From contig JAFSCR010000030.1 of the NCBI GenBank assembly GCA_017436645.1, forward strand, positions 10,083-74,082: 64,000 bases of DNA, in the 5' to 3' direction. Positions within the stretch are counted from its first letter, which is position 1; each line of letters starts with the position of its first letter. The position numbers were made by a program, and so were the translations under genes. The notes under the pieces were generated by a model. That model made no database searches, had not been told where the DNA came from, and saw nothing but the letters and a program-made list of their open reading frames with translations. This DNA is from Clostridia bacterium. GTDB lineage: Bacteria > Bacillota > Clostridia > UMGS1883 > UMGS1540. Positions 3,601 through 64,000 of the stretch are shown in pieces.

Positions 3601-4202
3601 GCGGTCTTGACCACGTTCTCGCTTCCGGCGAAGATGTAAACGTTCTCGTATTCGATACAGAAGTTTACTCCAACACCGGCGGTCAGGCTTCCAAGTCTAC
3701 CCCGACCGGCGCTGTTGCACAGTTCGCTGCAGGCGGTAAGCCCATCAAGAAGAAGAACCTTGCTGAAATGGCAATGAGCTATGGCTATGTATACGTAGCA
3801 CAGGTTGCACTCGGCTATGATATGAATCAGACGGTTAAGGCAATAAAAGAAGCTGTAAGCTACAATGGTCCTTCCATTATCATCGCTTACGCTCCGTGTA
3901 TCAACCACGGTATTAAGGGCGGTATGACCGATACCCAGAAGATTATCAAAAATGCTGTTTTGGCCGGCTACTGGCACACCTTCCGTTTCGATCCGAGACT
4001 GAAGGAAGAAGGCAAGAATCCGTTTACAATGGATTCCAAGGCTCCCGATGCTTCTTACAGAGACTTTATTATGAACGAAGTTCGTTACAGTTCTCTTGCA
4101 CGTAAGTTCCCCGAAAGAGCAGAAGAACTCTTCCAGGAAGCTGAAAAGCAGGCAAAGGAAAAATACGAGCATTGGACAAAGTTCGGCAAACTCTTCGAAT
4201 AA
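696..4202 (+). CDS. nifJ: pyruvate:ferredoxin (flavodoxin) oxidoreductase, single-chain PFOR
   Basis: The 1168-aa ORF carries a 2x[4Fe-4S] ferredoxin domain (CIQCNQCSLVCPH, CSGCGNCAKVCP), a TPP-binding region (GGDGWAYDIGYGG) and an N-terminus typical of NifJ/PorA-type PFOR. Confidence 0.97.
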   Translation: MARKMKTMDGNNAAAWASYAFTDVAAIYPITPSSVMAEVTDEWSVDKKNNMFGQPVKVVEMQSEAGAAGAVHGSLAAGALTTTYTASQGLLLMIPNMYKMAGELLPSVIHVSARCVASHALNIFGDHSDVMACRQTGYAMLCSNSPQEVMDLGAVAHLAAIKGRVPFLHFFDGFRTSHEIDKIEVWDYEDLKEMVDMDAVRAFRNGSLNPEHPVLRGSAQNPDIFFQNREACNKFYENVPAVVEEYMNRVNAKIGTNYGLVNYYGAPDAEKVIVAMGSICDTIEETIDYLTARGEKVGLIKIRLYRPFPVEAFLKALPATCKKIAVLDRTKEPGSIGEPLYLDVCACFTGKADAPTIIGGRYGLGSKDTVPADIIATYKNLDAKEPVRGFTLAITDDVTNLSLPREENPDTSAKGNTACKFWGLGSDGTVGANKNSIKIIGDHTDLYAQAYFSYDSKKSGGITVSHLRFGEKPIKSTYLINKANFVACHNPSYVDKYDMVQDLVPGGKFLLNCAWDVNELSDRLPAKMKRYIAENNISLYTIDAIGIAKELGLGNKTSIVLQSAFFKLANVIPFEDAVGYMRDAVVRSFASKGEKIVSMNHAAIEEGAKNIKEIAVPADWKDAQDAEKAAAAVPSFVKDILKPCEKQAGDKIPVSTFVDYVDGHLPQGMAAYEKRGIAVDVPEWIPENCIQCNQCSLVCPHAAIRPVVMTAEEAAAAPQNMKHKKMNGKDLGHYEFGIAVTVMDCSGCGNCAKVCPAKEKALVMKPIDSQRDQQACFDYAVKEVSDKEELLALPINVKNSQFHQPLLEFSGACAGCGETPYAKLVTQICGDRAYISNATGCSSIWGGSAPSTPYTTNKKGHGPAWANSLFEDNAEHGLGMAVGAKQLRERLRGQIAALSCETVKAAAEEWNATYDDGDLNAKATEALIAALEECGSEEAKEILAFKEYLSKKAVWIFGGDGWAYDIGYGGLDHVLASGEDVNVLVFDTEVYSNTGGQASKSTPTGAVAQFAAGGKPIKKKNLAEMAMSYGYVYVAQVALGYDMNQTVKAIKEAVSYNGPSIIIAYAPCINHGIKGGMTDTQKIIKNAVLAGYWHTFRFDPRLKEEGKNPFTMDSKAPDASYRDFIMNEVRYSSLARKFPERAEELFQEAEKQAKEKYEHWTKFGKLFE

Positions 4203-56676: not shown

Positions 56677-57399
56677 TTATTTACGTAATTTCCGGCAATA
56701 TTGTGTGCAAAGCTTGTCCGTACATTCTGAACATCTGAGCGCCATATTGCTGTTTTCCCAGAACCGCTCGGGATAGGTAAAGACGCATACTTCCCAGATG
56801 ATAAAGATAATAACGGAGAGACCAAAGAGGGACCAGGAGAAAAAGCTGTTTACCATAATCAGGGGAGAGAACATCATGAGGTGGTCCCAGTTAAATATGC
56901 GGCAGGTGGTGCAGCATTTGTTTTTCATGATGAGACGAAACGGGCACCAGATGAGAACGCAGATAAGGTCGCATACGTAAAAGAGTACGGAAATGAGCAC
57001 CACACCTGCTGTATCCAGAAACCCTTTTACATATAAAAAGCCAATCAGAACACTCAATGCACCCCATAAAACCATGACTTTATAGGCGGCGGCGGTGGTG
57101 TCCTTCACATATTTTTTTAGATTTTGATAATTTATTTTTTCTTTGATGGGACGGAAGAGGGAGGGAAACAGCTTTTGCGACCCGATGGAAATGTGGGCCC
57201 GAATGGGCAGGAGCTGCAAAATCATGTCCCATATCCATATGCCCCAAAGAATGTGGAGAACGGAAAAAGTTTCAAAAAAATGCATTCCTTCAGCAGGGAA
57301 AAACACATCTTTTCGGAATAAATATAAATATACGGTGAGCGCCAATATGCCGCATCGGGCAAAAAGGCGGATAAAGTAAATTTTTCTTGTCTTTGACAT
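56677..57399 (-). CDS. hypothetical polytopic membrane protein with a C-terminal Cys-rich region
   Basis: The start is chosen at MSKTRK, which has a TGGAGG RBS. Six or so TM helices are present. The C-terminal segment reads KNKCCTTC...RCSECTDKLCTQYC. Confidence 0.55.
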   Translation of the reverse strand: MSKTRKIYFIRLFARCGILALTVYLYLFRKDVFFPAEGMHFFETFSVLHILWGIWIWDMILQLLPIRAHISIGSQKLFPSLFRPIKEKINYQNLKKYVKDTTAAAYKVMVLWGALSVLIGFLYVKGFLDTAGVVLISVLFYVCDLICVLIWCPFRLIMKNKCCTTCRIFNWDHLMMFSPLIMVNSFFSWSLFGLSVIIFIIWEVCVFTYPERFWENSNMALRCSECTDKLCTQYCRKLRK

Positions 57400-57467
57400 A
57401 GTGCCTCCAAAAGTATTAAGTACCTTTTTAGTATAACATTTTTCTGCACAAAAGTCAATGCACACAA

Positions 57468-57498
57468 AAGGCGATTGCATAAAATACAATCGCCTTTA
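57468..57498 (-). terminator. relict lysS terminator displaced by the island insertion
   Basis: The hairpin aaaggcgattg/caatcgccttt lies directly downstream (on the minus strand) of the lysS 3'-end remnant PTMKTLS*. Confidence 0.4.
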
Positions 57499-57518
57499 AT
57501 GCTTATAAAGTTTAGCTC

Positions 57519-57537
57519 AGCGTCTTCATGGTGGGGA
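57519..57537. repeat. attL-like 19-bp direct repeat (AGCGTCTTCATGGTGGGGA), a copy of the lysS 3' end
   Basis: It is identical to 63247-63265. On the minus strand it encodes ...PTMKTLS* followed by the relict terminator. Confidence 0.7.
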
Positions 57538-57722
57538 TTAGGGTCCCAATAATCACATAACTCATTATAACTCTACACAATCCTTTATATAAGGCGTTTT
57601 CAGAATATCCATTTTCACATAAGTCTTCAAGCCTATATAATATATGCACAAAATGGTGTGGTGATTTAGTGTGGTTGGTGTAGTAACCTCTTTAATTACT
57701 AAATAGTATTTCTTCAAATCCC

Positions 57723-57771
57723 TTGACATTTTGCACAAAGTATGTTAGTATGTTTACATACATACTTTGTG
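57723..57771 (+). promoter_or_regulatory. promoter (TTGACA-17-TAGTAT) overlapped by a 12-bp perfect inverted repeat (C-box-like operator)
   Basis: The arms cacaaagtatgt (57734-57745) and acatactttgtg (57760-57771) flank the -10 element. RBS GGAGGTGA follows. Confidence 0.55.
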
Positions 57772-57785
57772 GAGGTGAAAAACGG

Positions 57786-58121
57786 ATGGCTACGGATAAA
57801 AAAGCGTTTGGCAATTTCCTTCGGGAAATGATAAGTCAGACAAAAATATCGCAGGCAGCTTTTTATGAAGCTGTGGGGATTACAAAGCCATATTTTTATG
57901 ACATATTATCCGGCAAAGTCAATCCACCACCACCGGATATACAGTATAAAATGCTTGAAAAATTAACTGTTAATGAAAAACAGCGAAAGCAGTTTTTGAA
58001 CTTGGCTGCTGAGGGACGCAGCGAAATCCCTGCAGACATTGCAAAATTGATTACGGATAATCCGCGGCAGCTTGAAAAAATACGAACAACACTTACAGAA
58101 CTGCTTGTAAAGCAGAGATAG
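57786..58121 (+). CDS. XRE-family HTH regulator (R-M controller C-protein-like)
   Basis: The 111-aa product has an HTH (ISQAAFYEAVGITKPYFYDILSGK). It is the first gene of the R-M cassette and lies immediately downstream of a palindromic operator. Confidence 0.75.
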   Translation: MATDKKAFGNFLREMISQTKISQAAFYEAVGITKPYFYDILSGKVNPPPPDIQYKMLEKLTVNEKQRKQFLNLAAEGRSEIPADIAKLITDNPRQLEKIRTTLTELLVKQR

Positions 58122-58131
58122 GAGGATAGAT

Positions 58132-60234
58132 ATGGCGGCATTACAAGAGCTTATTGCAAAAATAGAAAACCCGGAGCTTCGTGCGCAGATACAGGAAGCA
58201 GCTGACAAGGCATTAAAGCGCAAACAGTTCGGACTTGTATTCGAGGAACACCTGCCAGAATGTACTCCTCTTCACGACGTCCCCGTAAGAAAAGGAAAGC
58301 GTGTATCTCTGAAGACAGGCAAGGTAAGCGAAACTTATAAAGTATTGGAAATTCAAGGAGACAAAGCAATCTGTTTACCAAAGGACAGCAATGAGGCTGT
58401 TGAATTTTCGATAGATGACCTTGTTGTAACGGCAGAATTTGGTGAACCAATCTACCCCTGCTTGAAGCCTCTTGGCGAAGTGTGCAACGCGCCGGACAGC
58501 GAACTTTGGCATACTCTTATTGAGGCAGATAATTATCATGCGCTCCAGCTTCTTGAATATCTTTATGGCGGCAAGGTGGATTGCATTTATATCGACCCTC
58601 CCTATAATACAGGAGCAAAAGACTGGAAATACAATAATGATTACGTAGACGGAACCGATGAATATAGGCACAGCAAGTGGTTATCATTTATAAAAAAGCG
58701 TCTTGAAATTGCAAAACGCCTATTAAACCCAGAAAGTTCAGTGTTATTTATTACAATTGATGACAAAGAATATTTGCATTTGGGTTGCTTATTGGAAGAT
58801 ATGTTTCCAGAAGCAAGAATTCAAATGATAAGCGATGTAATTAATCCAAAAGGGACTATGCAAAGAAAAAAGTTTCCAAGAACAGACGAATACATTTTCT
58901 GTGTATGGCTTGGAGAAGCAGAACCAACCGAATTAACCCTTTCGAAGGATTGGTTAATTGGTGATGCTGATAATACTAATCGCAACAGGTATAGATGGGT
59001 TACATTCATAAGAACGGCCCCAAATGTTAGCAGAAGCAAAACTCCTTCTATGTTTTATCCAATATTTGTAAACAAGGAAGGAACAAAAATTATTAGAGTA
59101 GGTGAATCATTAGGCAAGGAAGTTGATTATCAAACGATAAAACCGCAAGAAGGAGAATGTGTTCTATTTCCGATTAACTCTCAAGGGCGTGAGGTAATTT
59201 GGCATTTGACACAAACCTCCTTAATGGAAGCATATTCAAAAGGATTCGTGAAATTGAGCGGAATTACAAAAAACGGAGTTAGTATTTCATATTTGCCTTC
59301 TGGAATGCAAAAAAAGATTTCAGATGGTGATATACCAATCTTAGGGTATGATGAAAATGGCGCTGTTATTTTTGATGCATCTGATTATGCTCCGCAATTT
59401 ATGCCTGGTACACAGTGGAGAATAAAAACACATGATGCAACAGAACACGGAACGAAATTATTACAGAAATTAATAGGCAACAGATTTTCTTATCCCAAAT
59501 CCTTGTATTCAACCAAAGATTGTATTAACTTTTTTCTGTGTAATAAGCCTAATGCGTTGATTGTGGATTTTTTTGCTGGCTCAGGAACAACTCTCCATGC
59601 AATCAACCTCCTAAATGCAGAGGACGGAGGCAACCGACGTTGTATAATGGTAACAAACAATGAGGTTTCAGGAGACGAAGCGAAGACATTAACAGCAAAA
59701 GGACTTAAGCCAGGGGATAAAGAATGGAATAACCTCGGTATAGCTCGCTATGTCACATGGCCTCGCACAGTATGTTCTATAGAAGGACATGACGTAAACG
59801 GTAATCCGTTAAAGGGGAATTACATAGGAAGTGATATTCCTATGGCAGACGGATTCAAAGCGAACGCCGCTTTCTTCAAATTAGGTTTCCTTGATAAAAC
59901 AAAGGTTTCACTCGGTATGCAGTTCAAAGAACTTCTATCAACCTTGTGGATGAAGGCAGGAGCAATCGGCAGATGTCCTGTCGTTGATGCAACTGTGCCG
60001 GATATGCTGATTCTGCCGGAAAATAAGATGGCAATTCTCAATGATGAAAATCAATTTGGTGTATTTGCAGAAAAACTCGCAGAGCACCCGGAAATTGACG
60101 TTGTATATCTTGTTACAGATTACGAAGGAAGCTTTGTGGCAATGACGCGTGAGCTCCCAGGAAAAACTACATATCAGCTTTATAGAGACTATCTTGATAA
60201 CTTTAGAATTAATGCAGGGAGGAACAGCAGATGA
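58132..60234 (+). CDS. mod: Type III restriction-modification system methyltransferase (Mod, N6-adenine, beta class)
   Basis: Motif IV IYIDPPYNTG precedes motif I DFFAGSGTT, with a variable target-recognition region between them. The N-terminus LLEYLYGGKVD is typical of EcoP15I-like Mod. Confidence 0.88.
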   Translation: MAALQELIAKIENPELRAQIQEAADKALKRKQFGLVFEEHLPECTPLHDVPVRKGKRVSLKTGKVSETYKVLEIQGDKAICLPKDSNEAVEFSIDDLVVTAEFGEPIYPCLKPLGEVCNAPDSELWHTLIEADNYHALQLLEYLYGGKVDCIYIDPPYNTGAKDWKYNNDYVDGTDEYRHSKWLSFIKKRLEIAKRLLNPESSVLFITIDDKEYLHLGCLLEDMFPEARIQMISDVINPKGTMQRKKFPRTDEYIFCVWLGEAEPTELTLSKDWLIGDADNTNRNRYRWVTFIRTAPNVSRSKTPSMFYPIFVNKEGTKIIRVGESLGKEVDYQTIKPQEGECVLFPINSQGREVIWHLTQTSLMEAYSKGFVKLSGITKNGVSISYLPSGMQKKISDGDIPILGYDENGAVIFDASDYAPQFMPGTQWRIKTHDATEHGTKLLQKLIGNRFSYPKSLYSTKDCINFFLCNKPNALIVDFFAGSGTTLHAINLLNAEDGGNRRCIMVTNNEVSGDEAKTLTAKGLKPGDKEWNNLGIARYVTWPRTVCSIEGHDVNGNPLKGNYIGSDIPMADGFKANAAFFKLGFLDKTKVSLGMQFKELLSTLWMKAGAIGRCPVVDATVPDMLILPENKMAILNDENQFGVFAEKLAEHPEIDVVYLVTDYEGSFVAMTRELPGKTTYQLYRDYLDNFRINAGRNSR

Positions 60235-63068
60235 AAATAAATTTAATATCGTTTCAGGACAAGGCTGTTAAAGACCTGCGTAAGAAAATGGCGGTCGCTC
60301 AGAGCAGCTATAAAATAGAAAAAAGCACGCAGGTTGTTTCGCTTCAGGCACCTACAGGTGCAGGCAAAACAATTATTGCAGCAGCGGTTATTGAGGATAT
60401 TTATTTTGGCTCGACACTTGCGGATGGAACTACATTCGACGAACAGCCGGAAGCAATTTTCGTGTGGCTTTCTGACTCGCCGGAGCTCAACACGCAATCA
60501 CGTCAAAAGATTGAGCTTAAAACGAGCAAACTGAAGTATGGTCAGTGCGTGACAATCGAAGACGATTCCTTTGATATGGAAATGCTTGAGGACGGACATG
60601 TTTATTTTCTGAATACACAGACAATAAGTAGAAGCGGCCGACTCACTCAACATTCGGATAATAGACAGTATACAATATGGGAAACTCTTGATAACACCAT
60701 ACAGAACAAATCCGACAGACTGTATTTTATTATCGATGAAGCGCACCGTGGTGCAAAAAGCAAACGCGAAGCAGGCACCGATACCACAATAATGCAGCGC
60801 TTTATCAAAGGGTATGAATATACAGAAAATAATATCAAAAGAAAAATGCGTTCAATGCCTGTCGTTCTTGGCATAAGTGCGACAGCAGAACGTTTTAACA
60901 CTTTGATTAAGAACACCGGCGATGTTGTGCTAAGACAATATGTTGTTACAGCTGATGAAGTCAGAAGCTCCGGCCTTTTAAAAGACAGAATTGTTATCAC
61001 CTATCCGGAAGACCCGACCAAAAACAATGATATGGTGCTTCTGGAAGCAGCCGTGGAAGAATGGCTGAAAAAGTGTAAACGATGGTATCAGTATACTTAC
61101 GAACAGCATTATGCAAACGTTGACCCCGTTCTTGTGGTGCAGGTTTGCAAAGGAAGTGGCGGTGCTGTTTCTGATACCAACCTTGAAGATGTGCTTGCAA
61201 AGATTGAAGAAAAAGCGGGCATTCATTTCAAGGCTGGAGAAGTTGTACATTGCTTCGGAGAAGGAACAACACTTGAATTATGCGGACTTAGTATTCCTCA
61301 TGTGAAAGCATCTGAAATAGTTGATGATCATAAAATCAAGGTGGTTTTCTTCAAGGAAGCATTGTCTACAGGTTGGGACTGTCCGAGAGCAGAAACAATG
61401 ATGTCCTTTGCGGTAAGAAACGACCCGACTTACATTGCACAGCTACTTGGCAGAATGGTGAGAACACCACTTCAAATGCGCGTGCAGCGTGATGAATTCT
61501 TAAACGATGTAAAGCTTTATCTTCCCCATTTTGACAAGGATAACGTTAAAAAGGTTGTAGAGGAACTTCAGAGTAATGAAGGCGGTGACATTCCCACAGA
61601 GATTAACGGTGAATCTTTGGAGGAACCGACTTACATTACATGGACGGTACACACACCTCGTAGAAATCGTCAAAACGAGCAAAACCCGGATCAAATATCA
61701 TTATTTTATGACCAGCTGGCAGAGCAGAATGATAATACTGTTCCATATAATCTCCCGACAGTCGCGAACAATCCTACAAGAGTGTTAAATTCCGGAGACA
61801 ATGTGCCGGAATACATACCACCACAGACGGTTACTGTTCCGGCATCTCCTGTAGCACAGCAACAGACTCCTTTTGAACCGACACCGGCAGGAAAACAGCT
61901 TGAGTTTACTGTAGACATAGACCGAGTTGAAATAATAAACTTTATAAATTCAAAGGGGTATTTGACATATCTTGTAAGACAAGATCGCATAAATGATTAT
62001 TTAAAATCATTGCTCGACCTTGCAACATTGCTGACAATTAATGTCATTTATCAGGGAGCACGTGATGAAGTTATTGACGATATAATAGCTCTCATTCGTG
62101 AATATATTGAAGAATTGCATCACACAGGCAGATACAAAGAACTTGCTGAGCATATTTTGCAGCACAAGTTGTCAGTACAAATATTTGACCCGTTCGGAAA
62201 AGATGTTACAGAAAACTATACCAATGACTTTACTTTGATGTCAGAAACTGACCTTGACAGGCAGTTAAGAAATGCAGATGCCAAAATGGGCAGATATGGT
62301 TTTCCCAATATTTACGGCGGCAGATATTACGATGAAGACAATCCAAATGCTCACAAAATTGATTGTATTCTTTTTGCCGAGGATGAAGCATGCCGAACAA
62401 AGCTGGGTGAGTATGCAAAGGAAAAATTATACGAATTCGTTGCTAAGTTCAGACTCGCAATCGTTAATAAATCCGATGCGTGCAAAAAGAAATATCACGA
62501 CATTCTTGCAGATAGTGATATTGTCAGCGAACAGATTTTTGCTATTCCCGAAAACATCAGTGTAAGAGAAGACCCCGAAGGCAAAGAGTATGAAAACCAT
62601 TTGCTTGCATCTGAAACAACAGGCATTGCAAGAATCAAGTTAAACGGCTGGGAAGCAGACCTTATCGAAGAAGAATCCCGCAGAAATGACTTTGTTTGCT
62701 GGCTCAGAAATCCTGCACGTGCTTCATGGGCACTGTGTTTACCTTACGAAATAGGCGGAGAAAAGAAATCCTTCTATCCGGATTTTCTGATTGTACGCAG
62801 CGATAATGAGCTTGATTATGTCGTTGATATTCTTGAACCTCATGGAAATCAGTATAGCGACAATCTTCCAAAAGCAAAAGCCCTTGCGGAATATGCAAAA
62901 AAGGAAGACCGTATTGGAAGAATACAGCTTATCCATAAGAGCAGCGATGCTGCTGGCGTCAGCCATTTCAGACGTTTGGATTTAACAAACCTTACAGTCC
63001 GTGACAAAGTTCTTCAGGCAATGAATAATGACGAGCTTGATCATATTTTTGATACAGACGGAATATAA
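60231..63068 (+). CDS. res: Type III restriction enzyme Res subunit (SF2 helicase plus C-terminal nuclease)
   Basis: Walker A LQAPTGAGKT, DEAH box IIDEAHRG and motif VI QLLGRMVRTP are present. The C-terminal region has a PD-(D/E)xK-like motif (YPDF...DILEP). It overlaps mod by 4 nt (ATGA). Confidence 0.85.
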   Translation: MKINLISFQDKAVKDLRKKMAVAQSSYKIEKSTQVVSLQAPTGAGKTIIAAAVIEDIYFGSTLADGTTFDEQPEAIFVWLSDSPELNTQSRQKIELKTSKLKYGQCVTIEDDSFDMEMLEDGHVYFLNTQTISRSGRLTQHSDNRQYTIWETLDNTIQNKSDRLYFIIDEAHRGAKSKREAGTDTTIMQRFIKGYEYTENNIKRKMRSMPVVLGISATAERFNTLIKNTGDVVLRQYVVTADEVRSSGLLKDRIVITYPEDPTKNNDMVLLEAAVEEWLKKCKRWYQYTYEQHYANVDPVLVVQVCKGSGGAVSDTNLEDVLAKIEEKAGIHFKAGEVVHCFGEGTTLELCGLSIPHVKASEIVDDHKIKVVFFKEALSTGWDCPRAETMMSFAVRNDPTYIAQLLGRMVRTPLQMRVQRDEFLNDVKLYLPHFDKDNVKKVVEELQSNEGGDIPTEINGESLEEPTYITWTVHTPRRNRQNEQNPDQISLFYDQLAEQNDNTVPYNLPTVANNPTRVLNSGDNVPEYIPPQTVTVPASPVAQQQTPFEPTPAGKQLEFTVDIDRVEIINFINSKGYLTYLVRQDRINDYLKSLLDLATLLTINVIYQGARDEVIDDIIALIREYIEELHHTGRYKELAEHILQHKLSVQIFDPFGKDVTENYTNDFTLMSETDLDRQLRNADAKMGRYGFPNIYGGRYYDEDNPNAHKIDCILFAEDEACRTKLGEYAKEKLYEFVAKFRLAIVNKSDACKKKYHDILADSDIVSEQIFAIPENISVREDPEGKEYENHLLASETTGIARIKLNGWEADLIEEESRRNDFVCWLRNPARASWALCLPYEIGGEKKSFYPDFLIVRSDNELDYVVDILEPHGNQYSDNLPKAKALAEYAKKEDRIGRIQLIHKSSDAAGVSHFRRLDLTNLTVRDKVLQAMNNDELDHIFDTDGI

Positions 63069-63239
63069 AACAAAATGCCGGCAGGGAAATAAACCCCTGC
63101 CGGTTTTGATATTCACAAATAAAAGGACTACGGAAATCCCGTAGTCCTTAAACATTTAGGAACCTTTTTTAATTTTTACACACATTAGTGCACCTTTTTG
63201 GTGTAGTAACACCCTAAAAGCCTTGATTTACACTATTAC

Positions 63240-64000
63240 TCATCCAAGCGTCTTCATGGTGGGGAAGAGGAGCACGTCACGAATGGCGGAGGAATCGGTA
63301 AGGAGCATGCACATTCTGTCAATACCGAAGCCGATACCGCCTGTGGGGGGCATGCCGATTTCGAGGGCGGTCATAAAGTCCTCGTCTGTGGTGTTGGCTT
63401 CTTCGTCACCTTGGGCAAGGAGTGCTTCCTGTGCTTTGAAGCGTTCACGCTGGTCGATGGGGTCATTCAGCTCGGAATAAGCGTTTGCCATTTCCCAGCC
63501 GTTCATGAAGAACTCAAAGCGTTCCACATAGTCGGGGTTACCCGGCTTTTTCTTCGTAAGAGGAGAAATTTCAACCGGATGGTCCATAACAAAGGTGGGC
63601 TGAATGAGATGTTCTTCAACGAATTCTTCAAAGAAGAGGTTTAAGATGTCGCCTTTTCCGTGGCGTTCTTCGTATTCCACATGGTGTTCCTTTGCTACCT
63701 TGCGGGCGTCTTCCAGCGTTTTAATTTCATTAAAGTCTACGCCGGAATATTTCTTTACGGCATCCAGCATGGTGATTCTTTCAAAAGGCTTGCCAAGGTC
63801 CATTTCAATGCCGTTATATACGATTTTGGTGGTGCCGAGTACTTCCTGTGCCACGTGGCGGTAGAGGTTTTCGGTAAGGTCCATCATGCCGTGGTAATCG
63901 GTGTATGCCTGATAGAGTTCCATTAAGGTAAACTCGGGATTATGACGAGTGTCAACCCCTTCGTTACGGAATACTCTGCCGATTTCATACACACGGTCTA
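63240..64000 (-). CDS. lysS: lysyl-tRNA synthetase, class II (C-terminal part; the gene continues beyond the right edge of the window)
   Basis: Class II motif 2/3 region (FRNEG...; [27 protein letters not shown]) is present. The frame is open to position 64000. Confidence 0.92.
63247..63265. repeat. attR-like 19-bp direct repeat within the 3' end of intact lysS
   Basis: AGCGTCTTCATGGTGGGGA is identical to 57519-57537. Confidence 0.7.

Follow-up and report, generated by a model that had tools for sequence, protein, structure and literature searches.

At the centre of this study is a small regulator gene, together with the palindromic DNA immediately in front of it, at the head of a restriction-modification (R-M) operon from a Clostridia bacterium (GenBank assembly GCA_017436645.1, contig JAFSCR010000030.1, positions 10,083 to 74,082 of the forward strand). 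We refer to this whole stretch of 64,000 nucleotides (nt) as the window and count positions from its first letter. The original prediction, made from the letters of the DNA, was that a Type III R-M system had come under the control of a controller (C) protein: a helix-turn-helix (HTH) protein of the XRE type, 111 amino acids (aa) long, was thought to act on a perfect inverted repeat of 12 base pairs (bp) in its own promoter. The parts are just as described. The repeat lies at 57734-45 and 57760-71 and straddles TTGACA-17-TAGTAT, and the open reading frame (ORF) of the HTH protein heads mod and res. The features of the promoter and of the three genes are these:

57723 to 57728, plus strand: -35 hexamer, TTGACA
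57734 to 57745, unstranded: left arm of the 12-bp inverted repeat, cacaaagtatgt; conserved part only 57739-57745 (AGTATGT, heptamer 1)
57739 to 57766, unstranded: 28-bp composite operator (putative), AGTATGTTAGTATGTTTACATACATACT, defined by conservation across loci
57746 to 57751, plus strand: -10 hexamer, TAGTAT, 17-bp spacer from TTGACA, within the operator
57760 to 57771, unstranded: right arm of the 12-bp inverted repeat, acatactttgtg; conserved part only 57760-57766 (ACATACT)
57772 to 57778, plus strand: ribosome-binding site of the regulator gene, GGAGGTG
57786 to 58121, plus strand: regulator gene, 111-aa XRE-type HTH protein; ATG at 57786, stop at 58121
58132 to 60234, plus strand: mod, Type III Mod methyltransferase (PADLOC MTase_III PDLC03645 at 2.1e-172, full length)
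60231 to 63068, plus strand: res, Type III Res subunit (Pfam ResIII at 1.7e-13; PADLOC REase_III)

Mod also matches Pfam N6_N4_Mtase (7e-22), and it is the class of Mod, together with a ResIII-bearing Res encoded directly after mod, that makes this a Type III system. The AGGAGG ribosome-binding site of mod overlaps the stop codon of the regulator gene, and the stop of mod and the start of res share four nucleotides, ATGA. A scan of mod for a simple-sequence repeat tract found none. The regulator is gene 1 of a self-contained cassette of ~5.4 kb with a single promoter.

The two arms, cacaaagtatgt and acatactttgtg, are exact reverse complements with 14 bp between them. A repeat search found that the symmetry runs inward, giving arms of 17 nt with 88% complementarity across a 4-nt gap, and AGTATGTT stands as a tandem direct repeat, with two copies at 57739-57754. 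By a first-order Markov simulation, chance would give a window 0.03 perfect inverted repeats of 12 bp whose spacer does not exceed 20 bp; the real window holds about 10. All but this one are G+C-rich hairpins with A/T runs on either side and look like terminators (two were confirmed as such), whereas the palindrome in front of the regulator gene is AT-rich and sits within a promoter. The -10 hexamer of that promoter is an extended one, TG at 57743-44 forming a TGn extension of TAGTAT.

It is comparison with other genomes that defines the operator. One genome per species was scanned, which gave 57 loci, from gut Clostridia and related Firmicutes, with homologues 40-95% identical to the 111-aa protein. 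Just upstream of the homologue, 53 of the 57 loci carry a 28-bp motif with no more than six substitutions, and 48 of these 53 differ by no more than two. The four exceptions comprise a locus with only 63 nt upstream, two truncated homologues and a motif with a 1-nt deletion (L042). The consensus reads AGTATGT-W-AGTATGT-WW-AC-W-TACATACT, and between 50 and 54 of the 54 sites are identical at positions 9-15, 18-19 and 21-27. In the window, the operator is made of direct heptamers at 57739-45 and 57747-53 and an inverted heptamer, ACATACT, at 57760-66, with an extra overlapping ACATAC at 57756-61. The palindrome reaches just 0-1 bp past this core in 45 of the 54 loci, and the intergenic DNA around it is not conserved among related loci. 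By this comparison, each 12-bp arm splits into an outer 5 bp peculiar to the window locus and an inner 7 bp that is conserved. The original prediction was right to place a conserved site within the promoter; its unit, though, is a 28-bp composite of 7-bp repeats and not a pair of 12-bp arms. In five of the 54 loci (L033, L046, L052, L054 and the window itself) the outer palindrome is 3-7 bp longer, with sequences that differ, and by rough estimate, not a computed test, these extensions are commoner than chance.

The reverse search began from the motif. Metagenome contigs were scanned for exact copies without reference to genes, giving at least 120 loci; the metagenome counts here and below are for the matches listed. 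Of the 116 informative contigs, 115 have a regulator homologue that starts 10-32 nt after the motif; three of the motif contigs leave no room for a gene, and one is low-complexity DNA. Searched in both directions, motif and regulator gene therefore predict each other almost perfectly. The same pair heads R-M cassettes in more than 170 gut-bacterial loci. R-M genes are present in about 150 of the 160 loci with enough downstream sequence to judge, and in the window and about 150 related loci the HTH regulator is the first, same-strand gene of an R-M operon. These comparisons support the view that the XRE gene is dedicated to R-M operons and that the palindrome region holds its conserved, promoter-embedded putative binding site.

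The enzymes encoded downstream are of several kinds. The genome set divides into about 19 Type III loci, about 24 Type I loci with the layout hsdM-(267-aa unknown)-hsdS-hsdR, eight N6_Mtase loci in which, as a rule, this protein is fused to HSDR_N_2 and a specificity gene or domain comes next, and three exceptions with non-R-M genes downstream that resemble remnants. The Type III loci of this set include mod-res pairs like that of the window, a shorter pair (L012) and a different Mod family (L025). Among the metagenome loci, 63 are Type I, 22 Type III and 17 Type II/IIG-like; the rest are one PD-T4-6-type kinase locus, four others and nine truncated contigs. Five of those 22 Type III loci have yet another Mod family, PDLC03646, so that the Type III partners span at least four Mod lineages. 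Independent contigs for one homologue (P0037) repeat the order HTH, N6_N4_Mtase, ResIII. Within the Type III group the region from ribosome-binding site to start codon of the regulator gene, GGAGGTGAAGCGG-ATG, is kept. Taken together, the loci suggest that a single regulator-operator pair has come to be joined to enzyme sets of Type I, Type II/IIG-like and several Type III kinds, which circulate in gut Firmicutes.

Some of these cassettes hold genes of other kinds. The 267-aa ORF between hsdM and hsdS (L038:9012-9815) is conserved in about 80 Type I cassettes and has no Pfam or PADLOC match, and an unknown ORF of 287 aa lies between regulator and Mod in another cassette (L025:5547-6410); either may be an accessory or defence gene embedded in its cassette. 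On one metagenome contig (L150), operator and regulator are followed by a PD-T4-6-like Ser/Thr kinase gene flanked by genes for two unknown proteins, with no R-M genes. Now and then, therefore, the module heads defence genes of another kind.

Where the operator lies within the promoter is telling. In 114 distinct promoters, a -35-like hexamer is found 16-18 bp upstream of the TAGTAT of either heptamer 1 or heptamer 2. Most Type I cassettes use heptamer 1; most Type III cassettes, that of the window among them, use heptamer 2. Either way the operator lies over the -10 hexamer and the predicted start, the two registers being 8 bp apart. As far as sequence can tell, this is the geometry of promoter occlusion and not of activation. 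A search for a second operator, at up to four substitutions, found none in the window or at any other locus; there is one site per cassette.

The regulator itself matches Pfam HTH_31 (1.7e-5) and HTH_19 (2e-5), both under the curated cut-off. Scans against NCBIfam and PADLOC gave no match, and PHROGs gave weak matches to generic regulators. It has 611 relatives in 5.8 billion proteins, and the 120 of these that were listed are 109-127 aa long, nearly all of them 111 aa. In an alignment of 27 diverse members, the recognition-helix segment I32, K34-I40 (KPYFYDI) is invariant. The AlphaFold2 model (predicted local distance difference test score 89) has seven helices, namely a five-helix XRE core and two C-terminal helices at 83-110; the packing of these last two is less certain, since the model was built from a narrow alignment with all sequences at least 72% identical. 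Foldseek searches with the model gave no match at an E value of 0.001 or below, the top matches being HigA antitoxins (E 0.03). The expected likeness to C-protein structures was not borne out: the fold fits C.AhdI and C.BclI no better than it fits the non-C XRE proteins CapH, ClgR, SinR or the P22 c2 repressor. When a profile of the 27 family members was run against all Protein Data Bank (PDB) chain sequences at E up to 10, no characterised C protein was returned; C.AhdI, C.BclI, C.Esp1396I, C.Csp231I and C.Kpn2I were all absent, and the matches were HipB, an unrelated coiled coil and one unnamed HTH protein, none below E = 0.2. The modelled structure supports an XRE DNA-binding protein and nothing more specific. 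The window contains no paralogue of the regulator. No homologue was found by tblastn in 50,697 phage records and 72,556 plasmids, nor in a scan of IMG/VR, and an origin as a phage repressor or on a plasmid is therefore rejected.

Two smaller observations belong here. Right after the recognition helix comes a run of N-P-P-P-P (57921-57935, regulator residues 46-50) that is nearly invariant in the family, P48 being invariant and P47 and P49 present in at least 90% of members. Efficient translation of polyproline runs usually needs elongation factor P, so synthesis of the regulator could be coupled to translation status. The second is a viral contig of IMG/VR (L062) with an exact 27-nt match to the operator at 3767-3793 (minus strand) and no regulator gene; among its downstream ORFs no regulator, R-M or defence gene was recognised. 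The motif there may be chance or an operator decoy.

What, then, does the module do? We consider it quite probable that the 111-aa XRE protein is a dedicated autorepressor of the regulator-mod-res operon. It would bind the heptamers as a dimer or a dimer of dimers, with its invariant recognition helix (KPYFYDILSGK) and the additional pair of C-terminal helices, and once bound it would occlude the -10 hexamer and the transcription start and so block RNA polymerase. In a cassette entering a cell without the protein, regulator, Mod and Res would be expressed at a high level and then at a low, self-limited one. With the regulator in front of mod and res in one operon, and a single operator, the prediction is autorepression of the whole operon and not a delay of Res. 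The delayed timing of Res in the original prediction thus falls away: this circuit, as we read it, cannot produce a delay specific to Res. Protection by Mod before Res would be left instead to the order of the genes, to translational coupling and to properties inherent in Type III enzymes, and not to the regulator.

Several points weigh against this reading. The geometry of the heptamers is unusual for a simple HTH dimer, with 8-bp spacing of the direct copies and 13 and 21 bp between inverted ones, and dyad symmetry by itself does not account for the invariant AC at motif positions 18-19. Activation at low occupancy may also be compatible with the sequence. A burst of Res on entering a naive host seems risky, and for that reason an additional layer of control may exist. 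Finally, the start of the operon is a predicted one, and binding by the repressor is argued from comparison.

Regulators of this kind are familiar from two systems. HsdC of Mycoplasma gallisepticum S6, described by Fisunov et al. in 2017, is a small HTH "C-protein homologue" with homologues in Mollicutes, and is encoded by the first gene of a Type I operon, hsdC-hsdMSR; it binds repeats over the -10 hexamer and represses (PMC5282649). The protein (GCW_02350) appears to repress the whole operon, and its homologues are linked to R-M types I and II (PMC5282649). The window module likewise has an HTH gene heading an R-M operon, repeats over the -10 hexamer and predicted start, and linkage to more than one R-M type, and the HsdC motifs, too, are direct or inverted repeats with a TG-containing core. 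The two are set apart by the descriptions of motif and host: (GTGTTA-N5)x2 in Mollicutes for HsdC, AGTATGT-N-AGTATGT-N6-ACATACT in gut Clostridia and relatives here. An association with Type III systems is found for the window family, whereas none is reported for HsdC (PMC5282649). RptR of enteropathogenic Escherichia coli (EPEC), from Zhang et al. in 2025, is also encoded by the first gene of a Type I operon, and it represses its own promoter as a homodimer (PMC12255303). It has 79 aa and four helices and was described as without a PDB homologue at that time (PMC12255303). Both RptR and our regulator are products of the first gene of an R-M defence island, both have several short repeats overlapping the -10 hexamer, and in both cases the regulator and its site are conserved together in many genomes and are strongly associated with R-M. 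They differ in that ours has 111 aa, a seven-helix XRE fold and 7-bp heptamers, in contrast to the 79 aa and 6-bp TAGCTA palindromes of RptR (TAGCTA is absent from the 28-bp motif), and in being associated with Types I, II/IIG-like and III, whereas RptR is found mainly with Type I systems in Gammaproteobacteria.

The classical C proteins are another matter. They belong to Type II systems, where they precede R alone and M has a transcript of its own, and they activate and then repress; their sites are paired GACT/AGTC boxes that overlap the -35 hexamer or lie upstream of it (PMC12707154, PMC2632904). What our regulator shares with them is that it is a small XRE-type HTH protein. C.PvuII, C.AhdI, C.Esp1396I and C.BclI are 70-100 aa long and lack its C-terminal helices. 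Three features of classical C proteins were looked for (sequence homology, R-only gene order and a C-box), and the window system lacks all three; nor does the string GTATGT/ACATAC occur in the text of Sorokin et al. 2009. The idea of C-protein control survives in part. A small XRE-type HTH protein is indeed a dedicated R-M partner, but membership among the canonical C proteins is not supported, the sequence giving no match and the fold being generic. SinR of Bacillus subtilis offers a likeness of architecture only, with an unrelated regulon (biofilm), a heptamer that reads GTTCTYT and 18% identity; by analogy, it is a lead for stoichiometry and not evidence of membership. Most likely, to judge from these parallels, the window module works like HsdC and RptR and not like the activator/repressor switch of C.PvuII.

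A variant of autorepression we hold, by analogy, to be possible rather than probable. In this variant the protein is a signal-responsive defence repressor, and the same autorepression would serve to hold the R-M operon at a low level until relieved by phage infection or DNA damage. It extends the autorepressor reading and does not exclude it. Relief of repression has been proposed for RptR (PMC12255303) and shown for CapH/CapP. The cassettes, however, encode no partner protease, sensor domain or ligand-binding domain, and the sequence indicates no cleavage site.

Unlikely, in our judgement, is the classical C-protein switch, in which the protein first activates and then represses its own promoter so that Res appears after Mod in a new host. 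No second operator or separate mod promoter is conserved. Because the regulator precedes both enzyme genes in one operon without a separate mod promoter, Mod could not be ordered before Res by transcription. The site covers the -10 hexamer and the start and not the region upstream of or over the -35 hexamer from which C proteins activate (PMC12707154, PMC5282649), and it has no GACT/AGTC C-box. The searches already described point the same way, with no characterised C protein matching the family profile at E up to 10 and non-C XRE proteins scoring equally in fold searches.

Two readings set the protein aside and look to the palindrome alone. That it is a recombination site for movement of the cassette strikes us as very improbable. 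The cassette is seen in many genomic contexts and the motif does lie about 30 bp in from its left boundary, and some contigs have a serine recombinase downstream. There is, however, no second copy at the right end or within up to 7 kb either side of the gene, the register of the motif is fixed relative to -35, -10, ribosome-binding site and start codon, and cassettes with unrelated enzymes have only the regulator gene and the motif in common. Moreover, the repeats that flank the window island differ in sequence from the motif. We give hardly any credence to the palindrome as a nucleic-acid structure, whether a hairpin in the leader RNA (an attenuator, RNase site or translational control) or a DNA cruciform. 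If fully transcribed, 57725-57795 would fold at -22.3 kcal/mol (z = -4.4), and the differing outer extensions of 3-7 bp in five of the 54 loci, the window included, would suit such a structure. But the predicted start falls inside the palindrome, so that the left arm would not be transcribed from the conserved promoter. It is the sequence and not the pairing that is conserved, with invariant half-sites, a variable centre and no compensatory changes, and in the 45 loci mentioned above the palindrome ends within 0-1 bp of the core. An Rfam scan of 57300-58300 returned only noise, and the extra direct heptamer has no role in a hairpin.

Two more can be disposed of quickly. Methylation-sensitive promoters are known from some Type II systems (PMC12707154), but we attach next to no weight to the motif being a target of the cassette's own methyltransferase, with the promoter controlled by methylation, because the specificity domains (central Mod, and HsdS at 32-96% identity) diverge while the motif is invariant and common to wholly different enzyme types. 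Nor is it at all credible that the XRE protein is an antitoxin or prophage repressor merely beside R-M genes: HigA tops the Foldseek list (E 0.03) and PHROG matches to phage regulators are weak, and against these stand the lack of adjacent toxin or phage genes, the lack of homologues in phage, plasmid or IMG/VR collections, and the R-M genes at ~150 of 160 loci.

Autorepression of a Type III operon would be something of a novelty. In a 2025 review, the dedicated regulators named belong to Type II systems, apart from a single case in Type I (PMC12707154). Transcriptional control of Type III R-M is essentially undescribed, switches of this self-repressing kind having so far been described for Types I and II only, and the original prediction's sense of rarity was sound, as such control is reported nowhere for Type III in the literature we searched. 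What appears to be new here, by sequence comparison, is one regulator-operator pair serving Type I, II-like and III cassettes, and for Type III the locus offers a concrete pair, the same one in abundant bacteria of the human and animal gut. If confirmed, this would add a third family, next to HsdC and RptR, to the R-M repressors that head their operons (HsdC being compared by description), and would be a case of control modules swapped between R-M types.

More tentatively, we can imagine the XRE repressor and its 28-bp operator as a portable module that cross-regulates across Type I, II/IIG-like and at least four Type III lineages, and now and then a defence gene outside R-M, in cassettes exchanged between gut Firmicutes that are only distantly related. 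This is possible, if short of probable, and the reason to entertain a single cross-regulating group is that recognition helix and operator are the same in all cassettes. Were it true, a resident copy would silence an incoming cassette in trans, and vice versa, which would be the opposite of the lethal "mutual exclusion" brought about by activating C proteins; a phage or plasmid could exploit the module by carrying the repressor or an operator decoy. Such trans-regulation of co-resident or incoming cassettes would, if confirmed, bear on horizontal gene transfer and on phage defence in the gut. With its predicted repressor, the module also makes a compact, self-limiting promoter-repressor part for Firmicutes.

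The boundaries of the cassette, and of the island in which it sits, are marked by these features:

57519 to 57537, unstranded: 19-bp direct repeat, left copy, AGCGTCTTCATGGTGGGGA, exact match to 63247-63265
57708 to 57722, plus strand: left cassette edge, where DNA homology to other Type III cassettes starts
63077 to 63104, unstranded: terminator-like hairpin, bidirectional, at the cassette end after res
63247 to 63265, unstranded: 19-bp direct repeat, right copy, AGCGTCTTCATGGTGGGGA, in the last codons (3' end) of lysS, minus strand

Alignments by blastn to other Type III cassettes (L001-L025) start at 57701-57745, mostly at 57708-57723, and the homology ends at 63066-63111 (63104-63111 in L004, L008 and L020); none of these alignments shares any of the flanking genes of the window. 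Within cassettes otherwise 70-90% identical, the central part of mod (about 58830-59420) cannot be aligned, and between Type III cassettes Mod is 50-83% identical as against 77-95% for Res. That central part is probably the target-recognition region, and specificity appears to be swapped between cassettes, the middle of mod varying where res is conserved. Type I cassettes behave likewise, with hsdS 32-98% identical as against 90-98% for hsdR. Near-identical Type I cassettes (HsdR 90-98%) occur in records of Clostridia, Erysipelotrichales, Bacilli and Phascolarctobacterium, cultured isolates included (L029-L056, L063-L182), and their distribution suggests, with the usual caveat about metagenome bins, that they have spread recently by horizontal exchange in the gut. 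Among isolates, Anaeromassilibacillus senegalensis An867 (L008) carries a Type III cassette, and Laedolimicola ammoniilytica and Mediterraneibacter hominis NSJ-55 (L032 and L050) carry Type I cassettes.

The DNA from the island edge to the neighbouring gene is not conserved. It contains a hairpin, ggcgattg...caatcgcc, at 57469-57497 and a near-consensus promoter-like site, TTCACA-16-TATAAT, at 57614-57641. A transcript begun there would read through the entire palindrome; the site is not counted as part of the system because it is outside the conserved cassette. The neighbouring gene (56677-57399, minus strand) runs divergently from the island and has its own promoter, TTGACT-17-TATACT, at 57458-57430. 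It encodes a predicted membrane protein of 240 aa with a Cys-rich C terminus, for which Pfam, NCBIfam, PADLOC and PHROG gave no match.

The island looks like a site-specific insertion into the 3' end of lysS, and its interior encodes no integrase. Local alignment of the 19-bp repeat scores 38, compared with a maximum of 29 in 300 shuffles, and nested inside this bracketing pair is a 13-bp direct repeat, TTGGTGTAGTAAC, at 57675-57687 and 63198-63210. Among the cassettes, flanking direct repeats are convincing in the window alone; one other locus (L005) has G+C-rich ones on both flanks.

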